This document shows, in pieces, positions 1,423 to 7,507 of a DNA stretch of 64,000 bases (positions are counted from its first letter, which is position 1; every line of letters begins with the position of its first letter). The notes under the pieces are model-generated. The model was not told where the DNA came from and made no database searches. It saw nothing but the letters and a program-made list of their open reading frames with translations. Made by a program: the position numbers and the translations under genes. The stretch is taken from the NCBI RefSeq assembly GCF_013122565.1, contig NZ_CP053258.1; one strand, 5' to 3'. This DNA is from Escherichia coli. Lineage in GTDB: Bacteria > Pseudomonadota > Gammaproteobacteria > Enterobacterales > Enterobacteriaceae.

Positions 1423-1806
1423 GTGTTACAACTTCTTTTAGCAGTTTTTATTGGCGGTGGTACGGGAAGCGTGGCGAGATGGCTGTTAAGTATGCGATTT
1501 AACCCGCTGCATCAGGCGATTCCGTTGGGGACGCTGGCTGCAAACCTGATTGGGGCATTCATCATAGGAATGGGATTCGCCTGGTTCAGCAGGATGACAA
1601 ACATTGATCCCGTGTGGAAAGTATTAATCACCACCGGATTTTGTGGCGGTCTAACAACCTTCTCAACATTTTCGGCAGAAGTGGTGTTTTTGTTACAAGA
1701 GGGTCGCTTTGGCTGGGCATTACTGAACGTTTTCGTCAACCTTCTGGGGTCTTTTGCCATGACCGCACTGGCATTCTGGCTGTTTTCGGCCTCAACCGCA
1801 CACTAA
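1423..1806 (+). CDS. crcB: fluoride ion channel CrcB/FluC (127 aa)
   Basis: Track ORF 127 aa, hydrophobic four-helix pattern with GGxTTFSTF motif; start codon appears to be GTG. Confidence 0.92.
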
Positions 1807-1809
1807 AGA

Positions 1810-1845
1810 CCAAAAAAAACCCGCTGATTAAGCGGGTTTTGAATT
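1810..1845. terminator. bidirectional intrinsic terminator between convergent crcB and cspE
   Basis: aaaaaaaacccgct-gatta-agcgggtttt hairpin with flanking A and T runs. Confidence 0.7.
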
Positions 1846-1859
1846 CTTGCTGACGTATC

Positions 1860-2069
1860 TTACAGAGCGATTACGTTTGCAGCAGAAGGGCCTTTGGCAC
1901 CGTTAGTGATTTCGAACTCTACACGCTGACCTTCAGCAAGAGTTTTAAAACCATTAGTCTGGATTGCAGAGAAGTGTACGAACACGTCTTTGCTGCCGTC
2001 TTCCGGAGTAATGAAACCGAATCCTTTGGACTCATTAAACCACTTAACGTTACCTTTAATCTTAGACAT
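1860..2069 (-). CDS. cspE: cold-shock-domain protein CspE (69 aa)
   Basis: Internal start of track ORF 1860..2153; [37 protein letters not shown] contains the RNP1/RNP2 cold-shock motifs. Confidence 0.95.
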
Positions 2070-2243
2070 CAAAATTACCTTTACATGAAAAATAGACACA
2101 AATGCTGTGTCGGTTACCAGTACACCAATTGTGGTACGCTTTGTCCAGTGCAACTTTACTAAAAAGTGATAAAAGTCGCGTTATTTTTGATGTTAATTAT
2201 TTTACTCATTGATTTTAAAGAGTTTACTAAAATTTCATTTGTC

Positions 2244-2804
2244 TCAAAACTGAAAGCGCATCCAGGCAAAGTACACATTGCCATTGTTGTAGGTACCCGG
2301 AATGTAGGTCATCTGAAAAGTCACTGGACCATAACCCACGGAGGCCAATGGCAGTAGAACCGGGAGAGGGATGTAATTCCAGTTATCGCGCGCCGTTACG
2401 CCGGCGGTGAATCCCAGACCTAAATGAAAATTTTCATCCGCCAGCGGTCGCCAGGTACTTTCCCATCCGTATCCGGCAATCGGTTCCCATTTGTTCCACG
2501 AGTCCTTAAATGCCATGGCATACAGGCCATGCCAGTTTCCTTTTTCATCCCAACGCGACTGACCAAAACCGCCACCCCACGGTCGCTCGTTATAGCGATC
2601 GGTTTTTTCTTTGTCGTAAGCGAAACGTGCATGCCAGGTGATGGCAGGAATATATAAATCATAATGTTCAGGCTGTTGCCAGGTTTGTGCAATATTTTCT
2701 CTAAACGTTGTCATCCACTCATCTGCGTTAGCAAAAACTTTACCAACGCTGATTAACTGAATAAAAACAAAGGAAAATATAGCGACATATTTACTCACGT
2801 TCAT
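2244..2804 (-). CDS. pagP: lipid A palmitoyltransferase PagP (186 aa)
   Basis: Internal ATG of track ORF 2244..2828 ([25 protein letters not shown] signal peptide); outer-membrane beta-barrel pattern; plus-strand cat at 2802-2804 confirms the ATG. Confidence 0.92.
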
Positions 2805-3284
2805 TTGTGACCATAAAACATTTATCAAAAATCTACTACTAGCATAGCAAAGCTACAATTAACATAACCTTAATAGCTCCAACATAAAGAATAATCTGAA
2901 TAGCTGCTCTATTTATTTCCGCTTGTTTAAGTTAAATATTTCCGCGCATCGATTTAAAATGATACATCGTTTTCTGCGATGGGAATAGTCATAAAAGAAA
3001 AAGCAAGTTATTACTGATAACAAAATGCAATCAAGAAAAAAATGACTTATTTTTTAATAAGATACAAAAAATTATCTTAACAAAGAATATATTATATATC
3101 GTCAACCCACGCCCATTATAGATTATTTTTTGAGCACACAACCGCAGCTAACACCATTGCAATTAACAAATTTGCATCAATCTACCATCAATTTACACAC
3201 ATTATTATGTGATAATTGCCAACTGTTAAATATGCGTTTTGTTATCTATGTATAAAAACAGCAACTTCAATGTCTTAATGGCAG

Positions 3285-3310
3285 TTTTTCTTGATTTTAA
3301 TCAGCATTCA
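3285..3310 (+). promoter_or_regulatory. FNR-like site candidate upstream of dcuC
   Basis: ttgattttaatcag resembles TTGAT-N4-ATCAA with one mismatch, about 90-100 bp upstream of the dcuC ATG. Confidence 0.3.
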
Positions 3311-3393
3311 CCGCCAATTTATTGGGCATATTTTTTCCTTAAGTTTTAGGAATTTTTTATTATTTACTTTGGGGCCTGGAGACAGGAAAAATT

Positions 3394-4779
3394 ATGCTGA
3401 CATTCATTGAACTCCTTATTGGGGTTGTGGTTATTGTGGGTGTAGCTCGCTACATCATTAAAGGGTATTCCGCCACTGGTGTGTTATTTGTCGGTGGCCT
3501 GTTATTGCTGATTATCAGTGCCATTATGGGGCACAAAGTGTTACCGTCCAGCCAGGCTTCAACAGGCTACAGCGCCACGGATATCGTTGAATACGTTAAA
3601 ATATTGCTAATGAGCCGCGGCGGCGACCTCGGCATGATGATTATGATGCTGTGTGGCTTTGCCGCTTACATGACCCATATCGGCGCGAATGATATGGTGG
3701 TCAAGCTGGCGTCAAAACCATTGCAGTATATTAACTCCCCTTACCTGCTGATGATTGCCGCCTATTTTGTTGCCTGTCTGATGTCTTTGGCCGTCTCTTC
3801 CGCAACCGGTCTGGGCGTTTTGCTGATGGCTACTCTGTTTCCGGTGATGGTAAACGTTGGTATCAGTCGTGGCGCAGCAGCTGCCATTTGTGCCTCCCCG
3901 GCGGCGATTATTCTCGCACCGACTTCAGGGGATGTGGTGCTGGCGGCACAGGCTTCCGAAATGTCGCTGATTGACTTCGCCTTCAAAACGACGCTGCCTA
4001 TCTCAATTGCTGCAATTATCGGCATGGCGATCGCCCACTTCTTCTGGCAACGTTATCTGGATAAAAAAGAGCACATTTCTCATGAAATGTTAGATGTCAG
4101 TGAAATCACCACCACTGCTCCTGCGTTTTATGCCATTTTGCCGTTCACGCCGATCATCGGTGTACTGATTTTTGACGGTAAATGGGGTCCGCAATTACAC
4201 ATCATCACTATTCTGGTGATTTGTATGCTGATTGCCTCCATTCTGGAGTTTCTCCGCAGCTTTAATACCCAGAAAGTTTTCTCTGGTCTGGAAGTGGCTT
4301 ATCGCGGGATGGCAGATGCGTTTGCTAACGTGGTGATGCTGCTGGTTGCCGCTGGGGTATTCGCTCAGGGGCTTAGCACCATCGGCTTTATTCAAAGTCT
4401 GATTTCTATCGCTACCTCGTTTGGTTCGGCGAGTATCATCCTGATGCTGGTATTGGTGATTCTGACAATGCTGGCGGCAGTCACGACCGGTTCAGGCAAT
4501 GCGCCGTTTTATGCGTTTGTTGAGATGATCCCGAAACTGGCGCACTCTTCCGGCATTAACCCGGCGTATTTGACTATCCCGATGCTGCAGGCGTCAAACC
4601 TGGGCCGTACCCTTTCGCCCGTTTCTGGCGTAGTCGTTGCGGTTGCCGGGATGGCGAAAATCTCACCATTTGAAGTCGTAAAACGCACCTCGGTGCCGGT
4701 GCTTGTTGGGCTGGTGATTGTTATCGTTGCTACAGAGCTGATGGTGCCAGGAACGGCAGCAGCGGTCACAGGCAAGTAA
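3394..4779 (+). CDS. dcuC: anaerobic C4-dicarboxylate transporter DcuC (461 aa)
   Basis: Track ORF 461 aa, polytopic membrane protein; ATG at 3394 preceded by a ggagacagg SD-like sequence. Confidence 0.95.
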   Translation: MLTFIELLIGVVVIVGVARYIIKGYSATGVLFVGGLLLLIISAIMGHKVLPSSQASTGYSATDIVEYVKILLMSRGGDLGMMIMMLCGFAAYMTHIGANDMVVKLASKPLQYINSPYLLMIAAYFVACLMSLAVSSATGLGVLLMATLFPVMVNVGISRGAAAAICASPAAIILAPTSGDVVLAAQASEMSLIDFAFKTTLPISIAAIIGMAIAHFFWQRYLDKKEHISHEMLDVSEITTTAPAFYAILPFTPIIGVLIFDGKWGPQLHIITILVICMLIASILEFLRSFNTQKVFSGLEVAYRGMADAFANVVMLLVAAGVFAQGLSTIGFIQSLISIATSFGSASIILMLVLVILTMLAAVTTGSGNAPFYAFVEMIPKLAHSSGINPAYLTIPMLQASNLGRTLSPVSGVVVAVAGMAKISPFEVVKRTSVPVLVGLVIVIVATELMVPGTAAAVTGK

Positions 4780-4784
4780 ATAGT

Positions 4785-4816
4785 AATGCCGGAGGCAAGT
4801 TTCCTCCGGCTTTATC
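4785..4816. terminator. hairpin terminator in the 40-bp gap between convergent dcuC and dpiA
   Basis: gccggagg-caagttt-cctccggc followed by tttat. Confidence 0.65.
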
Positions 4817-4819
4817 ATG

Positions 4820-5500
4820 TCACCCACTGTGGTATATGCGTTGCGGTCTGCCAACTTTGCCGTGAACAATTTCAGCAATAATCAGATGGCGGCTGGCGCA
4901 ATATTCAAGATAACGCCTGGCAGTGGTGCGGCTGATGGTCAATGCCTGCGCCACCGTTTCTGCCGTATGTTGCACACCAGGCTCTTTGAACAATTTTCGC
5001 ACCGCGTTTAGCGTCAAGGGGTCAATGCCGGTCGGCAGTTCGTCTTTGGGTTCACCACGAGCATAGGCATTAAACATCTCATCAATTTGCTTCTGGCTGG
5101 CGCTATCAATACTTTCCAGCATATGTTTACGCTGGCGGAAACGGGTTAGCGTTTGCCCCAGCCGTTCATAGGCAATTGGCTTGATGAGATAATCAAATAC
5201 ACCACAACGTACGGCTTCAGACACCGTTTCCATATCGCTGGCTGCAGTGGTAAACACCACGTCGCCGGGATAATGCGCCTGCACCAGTTCATGCAGTAAA
5301 TTAATCCCTCTACCGTCAGGAAGATAGTTATCGAGCAAGATTAGCCCCGGCTTAAAACGCTCGATCATCATTCGGGCCTGCGCCAGGTTTCCCGCCAGTA
5401 ATATCTGACTGAATCCGGGAATGTGACGAATATATTCCGCATGCATCTCTGCCAGCGGCGTTTCGTCCTCAACGATCAATAGGGTTAATGGAGCTGTCAT
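4820..5500 (-). CDS. dpiA: two-component response regulator DpiA/CitB (226 aa)
   Basis: Track ORF 226 aa with receiver domain (LIVEDE...D) and C-terminal HTH; first 10 codons overlap the 3' end of dpiB. Confidence 0.93.
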   Translation of the reverse strand: MTAPLTLLIVEDETPLAEMHAEYIRHIPGFSQILLAGNLAQARMMIERFKPGLILLDNYLPDGRGINLLHELVQAHYPGDVVFTTAASDMETVSEAVRCGVFDYLIKPIAYERLGQTLTRFRQRKHMLESIDSASQKQIDEMFNAYARGEPKDELPTGIDPLTLNAVRKLFKEPGVQHTAETVAQALTISRTTARRYLEYCASRHLIIAEIVHGKVGRPQRIYHSG

Positions 5501-7127
5501 TAGGTTTCACTTTCGGAATATAGATTGAAAATAAGGTACCGCAGGGATCATTATCTTCGAGAGTGATAACACCACCGCAGCGCGTTACGTAGCTGGCAAT
5601 CAAGTACAACCCAATGCCATGTTCACCGGGCTCGTCAGCACGCGTACTGACCCCCTGCTCAAATATTTTGTCTCGTAGAGACTCTGGAACGCCGCAGCCC
5701 TGATCGGCGACTTCAATCACCACATCATCGCCTTCATCGCTGAGGAATAATTCAACGATCTTGTTTCCTTCATCGCTACGCAGGCTGGCTTCGAAGGCGT
5801 TATCAAGTAAATTGCCCACAATGGCGGCAAACTCGGTGCTATCCAGTCCTGGCGGCAGTTGCGAAAGCTGGCTACCGGGGACGATGATCATTTTTAGCCC
5901 CAGTTCCCGGGCGCGCTGCACTTTACCAAAAAGCAGCCCCGCCACCTGGCGATCGGCAAACGCCTCGCGCAGGCTGTCAATAAGCTGTTGCTGTGCCTGA
6001 GACTCCCCCTGCACCATCGCCAGCACGCGATCATACTCTTTCATCTGCAACAGACCATTGAGCGTCGACATCCAATTGAGATGCTCGTGTCGCAATGTAC
6101 GAAGGCTCTCGACGTATTGTTTTATTTGCGTCAGTTGCGCATTGAGGGTGGAAATTTCGTCTTTACTACGAAAGCTGATAATGGCCCCCAGCAAATCATC
6201 ACCTGAACGAATAGCTTCCCGATTGGCAATAACGCTCAGACCGTTAAAGTTAGCCACCACATCCTGACGTTTTTCATCAATCTGTTCGGTAAAGAAATCG
6301 GCGGGCCTGACCACTTCAGCAATGGGTTTACCCAACCATTGCCGTCCGGGGGAACTCAGCCCCAGCATCTTTCTTGCGTTACGATTGATGGCGGTAATGT
6401 AACCGTGCGGATCCACCGCAATCAGCCCTTCATAAACCGAACTAAATAGCGCCTCTTGCTGACGGACCACGCGTGCGATTTGCTTTGGCTCCATGCCCAT
6501 CATCTGCCGACGGATATGCGCGGCCAGGAACCACGACAGCAACATCAGAATCCCTAACAGCACGACAAACACACCTGCCATTGGTAATAAAAACTCAGCC
6601 CGCCAGCTATCGATTTTACTCACCAGGTAGCCAATCGACACCACGCCGATGACTTTTCCATCGTCATCAAAAATTGGCGTTTTGGCGCGCATCGCCATGC
6701 CCATTGACCCTTTCCCGGTAATGAAGTAGCTCTCCCCTTTCTCCAGCGCGCCCTGTTTGGTGAACTGCATAGGATGACCAATTTTCTCCGGATTAGGATG
6801 GTAAAGGCGGATCGAGTGCCGGTCGCCAATCACCACATAATCAAAATCGGTATCTCTTTGTAATTTGTTAGCGATGGTCGCCAGCCGTTTGTAGTCACGC
6901 GTTTTTACTGCGCTGATGATACTGTCATTAGAAGCAATAATTTTCGCCTGATTCATTGCCATGTCGCGTACATGAAGCGTTAAATAGTCCTCAAAACTGG
7001 CCGTAAAATATTGCGCCAGGGCTGCAATGACAAATATTGAGAACACCAGAATCAGCAAAAAGATACGCAGCGGAAATGCCAGTCTTTGGAAAAATGCAAA
7101 CTGTTTATTCTCGTTAAGCTGCAACAT
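5469..7127 (-). CDS. dpiB: sensor histidine kinase DpiB/CitA (552 aa)
   Basis: Track ORF 5469..7187 trimmed to internal Met (MLQLNENKQFAFFQRLAF...) to give 552 aa; periplasmic sensor plus HATPase_c motifs. Confidence 0.9.
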   Translation of the reverse strand: MLQLNENKQFAFFQRLAFPLRIFLLILVFSIFVIAALAQYFTASFEDYLTLHVRDMAMNQAKIIASNDSIISAVKTRDYKRLATIANKLQRDTDFDYVVIGDRHSIRLYHPNPEKIGHPMQFTKQGALEKGESYFITGKGSMGMAMRAKTPIFDDDGKVIGVVSIGYLVSKIDSWRAEFLLPMAGVFVVLLGILMLLSWFLAAHIRRQMMGMEPKQIARVVRQQEALFSSVYEGLIAVDPHGYITAINRNARKMLGLSSPGRQWLGKPIAEVVRPADFFTEQIDEKRQDVVANFNGLSVIANREAIRSGDDLLGAIISFRSKDEISTLNAQLTQIKQYVESLRTLRHEHLNWMSTLNGLLQMKEYDRVLAMVQGESQAQQQLIDSLREAFADRQVAGLLFGKVQRARELGLKMIIVPGSQLSQLPPGLDSTEFAAIVGNLLDNAFEASLRSDEGNKIVELFLSDEGDDVVIEVADQGCGVPESLRDKIFEQGVSTRADEPGEHGIGLYLIASYVTRCGGVITLEDNDPCGTLFSIYIPKVKPNDSSINPIDR

Positions 7128-7507
7128 TGTTTTCCTTGCGGGTTGTCCCGAACCTCTTTGACGGATGTAATTAAAATGTTGAATCAAAATACATAGATAT
7201 TAATTATGATCGTGGCAAATTTTATTCATTAAATCAATTAAATCACTTAAACCTGCGGGTCATTTCGCAATTACATTAATTAAAAAACTTAAAACCATTA
7301 AATAAATAAAAAACCACTAACTCTATGTGAAATAAATCAAAATTTCACGCCGAAATACTCCTTAGGATGTATAGCGAAAGGAGAAAAAGATATACCTCGA
7401 TCGCCCTCCCTTTCTCCCAAGTGAAAATAAAAGGTTATCAGTTTGCAACATTGAACAACATTCGTTGCAAATCGATAACAATATGCACCTTCAGGATACT
7501 ATTTATT

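Follow-up and report, generated by a model that had tools for sequence, protein, structure and literature searches.

The 3′ end of a sensor kinase gene in Escherichia coli, dpiB, also contains the start of the gene for a response regulator, dpiA. Overlaps of a few nucleotides are common between such genes, but here 32 nt are read in two frames. The question raised by this locus is what determines the length of the overlap and whether the length says anything about how dpiA is translated. We analyzed the locus in a 64,000-nt stretch of E. coli DNA (hereafter, the window) and compared it with annotated genomes, related species, and published data on translation.

The dpiBA Locus

The gene pair and a neighboring element have the following positions in the window:

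5469..7127, minus strand: dpiB (citA), sensor histidine kinase gene, 552 codons plus a TGA stop (from the list of open reading frames; RefSeq has the same length)
4820..5500, minus strand: dpiA (citB), response regulator gene, 226 codons, with its ATG at 5500..5498 (from the list of open reading frames)
4788..4810, no strand assigned: GC-rich hairpin between the convergent genes dpiA and dcuC (from a consensus scan only)

The two overlapping genes are co-directional on the minus strand and are those of the citrate-responsive two-component system CitA/CitB (DpiB/DpiA) of E. coli; in the literature, the citA-citB unit is named the dpiBA operon. The 552-residue product of dpiB has the Pfam domains sCache_3_2, PAS, SPOB_a, and HATPase_c, the last of which ends at approximately residue 539–541. 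This is the layout of a CitA-type kinase, with a periplasmic Cache/PAS sensor, a PAS domain in the cytoplasm, and a SpoOB-type dimerization/phosphoacceptor helix ahead of HATPase_c. DpiA has the domains Response_reg (PF00072; residues 8–117) and HTH_64 (PF20714; residues 162–226) and is 100% identical to RefSeq DpiA. On the basis of near-identity to characterized E. coli proteins, DpiB is predicted to bind citrate and to engage in phosphotransfer to DpiA. The annotated start of dpiB is an ATG at 7127, and an upstream extension of its longest open reading frame reaches a TTG at 7187.

In the window, dpiBA is flanked upstream by the divergent gene citC (citrate lyase genes) and downstream by the convergent gene dcuC, a context also found in matching RefSeq loci, Salmonella, and Buttiauxella. 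No promoter-like site was found on the gene strand near the dpiB/dpiA junction, and the surrounding region has no more such sites than shuffled sequence; an internal dpiA promoter was rejected on account of the former. The hairpin between dpiA and dcuC looks like a bidirectional terminator that closes the dpiBA unit.

The locus is nearly ubiquitous in the species. The dpiBA region was found in 5,420 of 5,426 complete E. coli genomes, and 5,099 of 5,416 genomes match the 141-nt junction at ≥99% identity. In the K-12 derivative JM109, the match is 100%. The best match of the 2.6-kb region has an identity of 99.2%. Across ∼6 kb around dpiBA, the window and K-12 differ at ∼2% of positions, none of them at the junction. 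This is ordinary strain-level divergence, and a divergent or odd source organism was rejected.

Geometry and Record of the Overlap

The overlap and the stop codon within it are located as follows:

5469..5500, minus strand: dpiB/dpiA overlap, 32 nt including the dpiB stop (read directly; both frames translated across species)
5469..5471, minus strand: dpiB stop codon TGA, formed by the final T of the dpiA Val10 codon (GTT, 5473..5471) and the leading GA of the Glu11 codon (GAG, 5470..5468)

In the dpiA frame, the overlap consists of codons 1–10 and two nucleotides of codon 11 (MTAPLTLLIV-E). In the dpiB frame, it consists of the last ten codons (two-thirds of that for N543, then those for DSSINPIDR) and the stop. 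The dpiA frame is +1 relative to that of dpiB because 32 mod 3 is 2, and the dpiA start codon is 29 nt upstream of the dpiB stop codon.

The overlap is genuine, unusually long, and already documented. In the RefSeq/PGAP annotation of E. coli L001, dpiB (1674..3332) and dpiA (3301..3981) have identical overlap geometry, and the identical overlap is also annotated in JM109 and O157:H7. The K-12 genes b0619 (dpiB) and b0620 (dpiA) are tabulated at −32 (Huber et al. 2023, table S2, PMC10666635). A sequence-only reading of the window had described a 32-nt, out-of-frame overlap between the 3′ end of dpiB and the 5′ end of dpiA; its coordinates are exact by the list of open reading frames and by direct reading, its frame relationship follows from the length, and its gene identities agree with Pfam and RefSeq. 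It had also considered the overlap to be longer than the usual 1 or 4 nt, which is correct. In prokaryotes, >80% of the gene pairs that overlap do so by <30 bp (review, 2025, PMC12548453), and six other kinase/regulator pairs of E. coli K-12 are at −1, −4, −4, −4, −4, and −8 (Huber et al. 2023, PMC10666635). Nevertheless, a random alternative frame has a chance of ∼0.65 of remaining free of stops for nine further codons, and the length of the overlap is therefore not improbable per se.

A Codon Logic for the Length of the Overlap

To place the overlap in a phylogenetic context, we compared the kinase stop and the regulator start in 80 loci with DpiA relatives and five further contigs, a comparison across species that the sequence-only reading had called for. 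The overlap is exactly 32 nt in ten Enterobacterales lineages (E. coli, E. albertii, Salmonella, Citrobacter youngae, C. werkmanii, Atlantibacter, Buttiauxella, Pluralibacter, Hafnia, and Erwinia), and 30 of its 32 bases are identical between E. coli and Salmonella. Elsewhere, orthologs overlap by 4 nt (one Enterobacter strain and some Vibrio), 8 nt (Edwardsiella and Providencia), or 14 nt (Moellerella, Budvicia, and some Vibrio), or have a small gap in place of an overlap (Yersinia and some Vibrio). Paralogous pairs mostly overlap by 8 or 11 nt. The 32-nt dpiB/dpiA overlap is evolutionarily old.

The relative frame is identical for overlaps of 8, 14, and 32 nt, and the positions at which the kinase gene can end are restricted by the codons of the regulator gene. 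The dpiB frame is −1 relative to that of dpiA, and a stop in it is possible only at a dpiA codon that ends in T and is followed by a codon that starts with AA, AG, or GA. A regulator with the N-terminus M-I-K (ATT AAG) or M-N-K (AAT AAA) leads to a kinase stop after 8 nt, and one with M-I-K-I-K leads to a stop after 14 nt. In the enterobacterial N-terminus, M-T-(A/E/Q)-P-L-T-L-L-I-V-E, the first possible dpiB stop in E. coli is at Val10-Glu11 (GTT GAG, yielding TGA). Thus, dpiB runs 32 nt into dpiA because MTAPLTLLIV-E offers no stop site before Val10-Glu11. By this logic, the length of the overlap is set by the N-terminal amino acids of DpiA, and the overlap itself is a by-product of reading-frame placement.

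What the dpiB frame imposes on the overlap appears to be small. Val10 is encoded by GTT in ten of ten lineages with the 32-nt overlap versus eight of 21 other orthologs (Fisher one-sided p ≈ 0.001, ignoring phylogeny). Without this TGA, the dpiB frame of E. coli would end only 39 codons onward, and DpiB would be extended by as many codons. The only clear constraint from the dpiB frame is on the stop codon, held by keeping Val10 as GTT. The remainder of the DpiB portion is a ten-residue tail beyond the HATPase domain, with the variants NDSSINPIDR, DDRTINPIDR, NDGTINATDR, DGTISDHSDR, NDATYYDSDC, DGTTSDDFDC, YDTTNNDSNS, and YGTTSEHFDR. The tail, unconserved and outside the Pfam domain, looks like a passenger of dpiA codons. 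In the DpiA frame, the overlap is conserved and L8–E13 is invariant. Dual coding would entail protein-level purifying selection on both frames, and the high variability of the DpiB tail is at odds with this. The proposal that the first ten dpiA codons are constrained in two frames is thus formally true, but the constraint is lopsided: the tail of DpiB drifts freely and only the dpiB stop is held.

Location of the DpiA Start

A longer N-terminus of DpiA is excluded because a TGA in the dpiA frame (5509..5507) is three codons upstream of the ATG in E. coli; in all eight analyzed sequences with the 32-nt overlap, a stop in this frame is located three to four codons upstream. The start could alternatively be misannotated in the other direction, with the true start at one of two downstream codons. 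The first is the following:

5477..5479, minus strand: TTG at dpiA codon 8, alternative start; the only other start before the invariant β1 motif LIVEDE and still within dpiB (11-nt overlap)

The second is Met19, the next ATG in dpiA, which is downstream of dpiB and would leave no overlap. Support for the annotated ATG comes from sequence, and codon 8 is TTG in E. coli, E. albertii, Salmonella, Pluralibacter, and Erwinia, both of which leave some room for a misannotation. However, Citrobacter, Atlantibacter, Buttiauxella, and Hafnia, which also have the 32-nt overlap, carry CTG, TTA, or CTA at codon 8, and no SD is found ahead of the TTG. A start at this codon would also shorten strand β1, whereas the closest solved receiver domains (best 5lwk, E = 2e-18; distant) align from DpiA residue 5–6. 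A start at Met19 would remove the invariant L8–E13 segment, with its acidic pocket, and the point at which the Pfam receiver domain begins (residue 8). Moreover, the ATG and its distance of seven codons to LIVED are kept across orthologs family-wide, and INRI-seq called no alternative start site for b0620 within the first 150 nt. A misannotated start is therefore highly improbable.

By these comparisons, the N-terminus of any functional DpiA has to lie within dpiB, since initiation beyond the end of dpiB would cost the protein strand β1 and the acidic pocket. The ATG at 5500 is well supported and much the best candidate. The sequence-only reading had made the same placement and had named initiation downstream, outside dpiB, as the finding that would overturn it. 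Conservation bears out the placement (the ATG, the upstream in-frame stop, and a receiver domain from ∼residue 6–8), and the downstream option, Met19, would delete L8–E13 and β1.

Direct data sets are silent on the start. A search for a solved structure of DpiA/CitB that would define the N-terminus returned none, with distant receiver domains as best matches, and the TRAINSPOTTER N-terminomics supplements have no entry for dpiA, dpiB, or citB. DpiA and DpiB were undetected (zero) in every condition of an absolute proteome (Mori et al. 2021). INRI-seq Table S2 relays in vivo Ribo-RET values, which are 0 for dpiA as well as dpiB, and zeros for both genes only mean that dpiBA was not expressed.

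An Initiation Region Embedded in Coding Sequence

Features that bear on initiation of dpiA extend to both sides of the overlap:

5417..5561, minus strand: dpiA translation-initiation region inside coding sequence; A/U-rich, nearly unstructured, and of low synonymous divergence
5505..5516, minus strand: CCGAAAGTGAAA, the Pro-Lys-Val-Lys codons of dpiB at the end of the HATPase domain; holds the SD-like GUGA and the dpiA-frame TGA

The nucleotides of CCGAAAGTGAAA are invariant in eight of nine tabulated lineages with the 32-nt overlap, with Hafnia (CCT) as the exception. Within the invariant Lys-Val-Lys codons is the sole SD-like element for dpiA, GUGA (5510..5507), which is 6 nt before the AUG in E. 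coli and 6–9 nt before it across lineages. The predicted SD duplex is weak, with 4 bp and −3.9 kcal/mol (calculated with the anti-SD of an extended 16S 3′ end). Orthologs in Yersinia, in which the genes are separated by a spacer, have strong SDs of −7 to −8 kcal/mol, and the SD of the Edwardsiella ortholog, AAGGUGAAG, is at −8.5 kcal/mol.

The region around the start is among the least structured in the operon. The MFE of the 60 nt centered on the dpiA ATG is −2.7 kcal/mol versus an operon mean of −13.3, which is in the least-structured 0.3% of windows. The corresponding 60 nt are in the least-structured 0.3–2% of operon windows in eight of nine species; in Erwinia, the value is 5.7%. The 141-nt junction folds no better than shuffled sequence (z = −0.37). 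An RBS-sequestering hairpin at dpiA was rejected, given this fold score and the lack of structure at the start, and the junction has no Rfam match at E ≤ 1. The A/U content of the dpiA start region is 0.63 versus 0.49 for the operon in E. coli and 0.60–0.70 versus 0.43–0.53 across species.

Synonymous divergence is also low. Between E. coli and E. albertii, zero of 40 comparable codons are synonymously different (P = 3.4e-8 against a background of 0.349). The 45-codon window centered on the junction has the fewest synonymous changes in the operon in each of the three Escherichia pairs. When 30-codon windows were used in eight deeper pairs, the junction was lowest in five and second or third in two more, though the dip is absent in some pairs, such as E. 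coli and Buttiauxella. The low-divergence patch extends from approximately dpiB codon 523 to dpiA codon 28 (∼15 codons or more to either side of the ATG). Because the patch is far wider than the overlap, it points to constraint on an initiation region and not to dual coding. Dual-coding constraint was rejected as the main cause of conservation: the patch exceeds the width of the overlap by a factor of 3–5, and the tail of DpiB is variable. In our reading, the patch is a translation-initiation region of the ordinary kind that lies within coding sequence. In operons, initiation signals inside coding sequence make synonymous substitutions scarcer, both where a gene begins and at the 3′ end of the gene before it. 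The synonymous dip at an internal start, low RNA structure, and A/U richness of dpiBA match this general pattern, with no obvious difference.

Translational Coupling

The sequence-only reading had taken the greater length of the overlap to imply strong translational coupling, a step that published measurements contradict. The efficiency of coupling peaks at −4 to +3 nt, and added overlap lowers coupling more than equal spacing does (PMC12548453). In E. coli pairs, a distance of ∼20 nt nearly abolishes reinitiation (Huber et al. 2023, PMC10666635). At −32, dpiB and dpiA are outside the range of termination–reinitiation (−4 to +3, at most about −8 to +6). The other known route, in which translation of the upstream gene unfolds RNA that sequesters the downstream RBS, is unsupported because the dpiA start region is nearly unstructured and has nothing to unfold. 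The length of the overlap is no evidence of strong coupling.

Data on the start region itself are more informative. INRI-seq relies on purified components for translation, and in this assay the isolated dpiA region (−30 to +150) yielded 0 CPM in five of five replicates. The dpiA transcript was low in the INRI-seq pool (∼22 CPM vs. a median of 125), and the zero may partly reflect that, but similarly rare transcripts were detected (tatE, 16.8 CPM in the pool; lipA, 28.0; ybeF, 31.1; vs. 22.3 for dpiA). The isolated start region of kdpE was detected as well. This single negative result, for a low-abundance transcript, suggests an intrinsically weak start region for dpiA, one that may rely on ribosomes from dpiB translation. 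Partial, low-efficiency dependence of dpiA on dpiB translation is plausible and is our best estimate; the reasons are the weak SD and the zero INRI-seq signal, not the length of the overlap.

Cedecea lapagei provides a natural deletion of dpiB. Its dpiA has an unchanged ATG and upstream AAAGTGAAA, and Val10 is GTA. Retention of the start region after loss of dpiB suggests that a dpiA start can work without dpiB translation.

Weighing Explanations for the Junction

Taken together, we assign a probability of roughly 0.7 to the reading that the dpiB-dpiA junction is as annotated, that the overlap is a by-product of reading-frame placement, and that a weak, A/U-rich dpiA start is partly dependent on dpiB. 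Under this model, dpiA would be translated from the dpiBA mRNA at an A/U-rich, unstructured region with a 4-bp SD in the last codons of dpiB. The region would be intrinsically weak, and initiation probably depends in part on ribosomes that are translating dpiB or terminating 29 nt downstream, which would reinitiate locally or be repositioned backward. The process is likely of low efficiency, as would fit a tightly repressed, low-abundance system.

A stronger version is that the long overlap exists for, or implies, strong coupling: ribosomes finishing dpiB would back up ∼29 nt and reinitiate at the dpiA AUG, tying DpiA to DpiB. The weak SD (−3.9 kcal/mol) and the zero for the isolated start region in INRI-seq are consistent with this, as are the maintenance of the overlap in ten lineages and the precedent of the coat-lysis pair of phage fr, coupled by scanning at −38 nt (PMC12548453). 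We nonetheless consider it unlikely. Reporter studies favor −4 to +3 nt and find that overlap costs more than spacing (PMC12548453), ∼20 nt is nearly enough to abolish reinitiation (Huber et al. 2023, PMC10666635), and the scanning model favors the start nearest the stop, which in E. coli would be the TTG at codon 8 and not the ATG. Furthermore, the missing stop sites in the dpiB frame fully explain the length of the overlap, close relatives have overlaps of 4, 8, or 14 nt or gaps, and Cedecea keeps the start region without dpiB. At the other extreme, dpiA could be initiated wholly de novo by free 30S subunits (S1-type or standby route), independent of dpiB and with a neutral overlap. We view this as possible but tentative. 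Its appeal is that the start region is A/U-rich and among the least structured of the operon across nine species, with no RBS hairpin to unfold, that synonymous constraint surrounds the ATG as it would for an autonomous initiation region, and that Cedecea dpiA retains the region after loss of dpiB. Yet an autonomous region would have to be reconciled with 0 CPM in all five INRI-seq replicates when comparably rare transcripts were detected and with an SD of just 4 bp and a long spacer (6–9 nt).

A +1 frame combined with a UGA stop is the general geometry of prfB-type +1 frameshift sites. Since dpiB ends in UGA and dpiA is read in frame +1 with respect to it, a programmed +1 frameshift in the overlap could in principle yield a DpiB–DpiA fusion, that is, a hybrid kinase-regulator. 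Immediately ahead of the stop, E. coli has CGU, Buttiauxella and Pluralibacter have UGU, and Hafnia has AGU, so that no slippery codon is conserved; none of the three could re-pair on GUU, and the site lacks a strong SD 3 nt before it. The fusion was rejected by inspection for want of a conserved slippery codon, and its probability is negligible.

Comparison with Other Overlapping Genes

The closest known case is dpiB-dpiA of E. coli K-12 (b0619-b0620), which has the same genes, order, 32-nt overlap, and junction sequence as the window, with no difference at the junction. The pairs kdpD-kdpE, dcuS-dcuR, ompR-envZ, and cpxR-cpxA (all −4), phoP-phoQ (−1), and narX-narL (−8) are, like dpiBA, co-directional genes of two-component operons in which the second gene starts inside the end of the first. 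Kinase-regulator pairs with short overlaps (ATGA/TGATG) can couple by termination–reinitiation, whereas the dpiA start, 29 nt upstream of the stop, is outside the −4 to +3 range. Likewise, the isolated start region of kdpE initiates in vitro, whereas that of dpiA does not.

In spacing, dpiBA is more similar to the coat-lysis pairs of the RNA phages fr (−38 nt) and MS2 (−50 nt), in which the downstream start is also tens of nucleotides before the upstream stop and out of frame (PMC12548453). Coupling has been shown for these pairs and is attributed to scanning in fr and to RNA unfolding in MS2 (PMC12548453). Coupling in the phages depends on RNA structure or demonstrated scanning, whereas the dpiA start region is essentially unstructured. 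The phage overlaps also encode functional parts of both proteins, whereas one side of the dpiBA overlap is a dispensable-looking tail.

Implications

The dpiB/dpiA overlap is already known and mechanistically ordinary. Our analysis makes small additions: an explanation of its length in terms of codon logic, the fixed GTT, the finding of exactly 32 nt across several families of Enterobacterales, and the footprint of a start region inside dpiB. Importance beyond the quality of annotation is little. An overlap that could be mistaken for a misannotation is real, old, and accounted for by simple codon logic, and it requires neither correction nor status as a special signal.

It is conceivable, though doubtful, that translation of dpiA obligatorily needs dpiB-terminating ribosomes to move ∼29 nt back over an unstructured, A/U-rich tract to the AUG. 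If true, dpiBA would be a native chromosomal case of long-overlap reinitiation in E. coli, with a built-in means of holding the regulator at or below the level of the kinase. Were coupling strict across 29 nt, the pair would also be a useful native test case in the debate on ribosome scanning versus reinitiation.

More generally, dpiBA offers worked examples of how coding sequence shapes the junctions of genes. The N-terminal sequence of a downstream protein can dictate the length of an overlap, the stop of a kinase gene can be held by fixing a synonymous site in the regulator gene (Val10 as GTT), and an internal initiation region can leave a footprint of low structure and low synonymous change in the upstream gene.

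Conservation and flanks of the dpiB–dpiA junction

In codon comparisons, synonymous divergence falls strongly around the start of dpiA, across a patch far wider than the 32-nt overlap between dpiB and dpiA.

5417..5561, minus strand: patch of low synonymous divergence with the dpiA start at its center

Of all windows along the operon, the one here has the lowest divergence in each of the three Escherichia pairs and in five of eight deeper pairs. In the comparison with E. albertii, none of 40 codons is changed (P = 3e-8). The least structured and most A/U-rich stretch of the operon coincides with it.

At the other end of dpiA, a hairpin sits between the stops of the convergent genes dpiA and dcuC and is probably a bidirectional terminator common to both.

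4788..4810, both strands scored terminator-like: GC-rich hairpin with a perfect 8-bp stem (GCCGGAGG…CCTCCGGC)

At the strain level, most complete E. coli genomes are 95–99% identical to positions 4700..7300. In this region and its surroundings, mismatches to K-12 occur at dispersed positions, apart from 29 that cluster within 3000..3249, upstream of dcuC. No match to the 2.6 kb of 4700..7300 exceeds 99.2% among complete E. coli genomes in RefSeq; the E. coli lineage of the window is therefore without an identical complete genome in this collection.

Orphan and possibly rearranged dpiA loci

In Cedecea lapagei (LR134201.1; locus L086, 1694..2201), a deletion has removed all of dpiB but a few codons at its end (…RSKVK…), and ∼500 nt separates citC from an intact dpiA of 231 aa. 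This dpiA is a natural orphan regulator. Its ATG and the upstream AAAGTGAAA are retained, both the same as elsewhere, and its Val10 codon, which in E. coli is GTT and supplies part of the dpiB stop, is now GTA by drift.

Orthologs of DpiA with 64–65% identity are also found in Serratia marcescens, S. silvae, S. grimesii, and S. oryzae (loci L012, L013, L015, and L044). In these four loci, no long kinase ORF ends near the dpiA start; in L012, the closest long ORF of any kind terminates ∼316 nt upstream. These dpiA genes may also be orphans, or their loci may have been rearranged.

Kinase N-termini

The kinase upstream of dpiA in Erwinia sp. JUb26 (locus L087, 907..2232) is called at 441 aa versus ∼552 elsewhere and is without PAS hits, either of which could mean that the N-terminus is truncated or that the start was miscalled; the 32-nt overlap with dpiA is still present at its end. 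In the window, the dpiB ORF can be extended upstream.

7127..7187, minus strand: 20 extra open codons before the annotated dpiB ATG

The extension reaches a TTG at 7187 and reads MIQHFNYIRQRGSGQPARKT-MLQL…. RefSeq places the dpiB start at the ATG at 7127, and the annotated citA/dpiB start was detected by INRI-seq, an in vitro initiation assay on isolated E. coli start regions.

Overlaps in paralogous pairs

Kinase–regulator pairs paralogous to DpiB–DpiA, with ∼40% identity to DpiA, were compared at loci L052, L057, L061–L065, L067, L072, L076–L078, and L081. In this CitA/CitB-like family, an 11-nt overlap is strikingly uniform across Enterobacter, Pseudocitrobacter, Pantoea, Lelliottia, Kluyvera, Erwinia, and Aeromonas, with the receiver motif eight codons after the ATG, and a second group of pairs overlaps by 8 nt. 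Overlaps of medium length in the same relative frame appear to be typical of the family.
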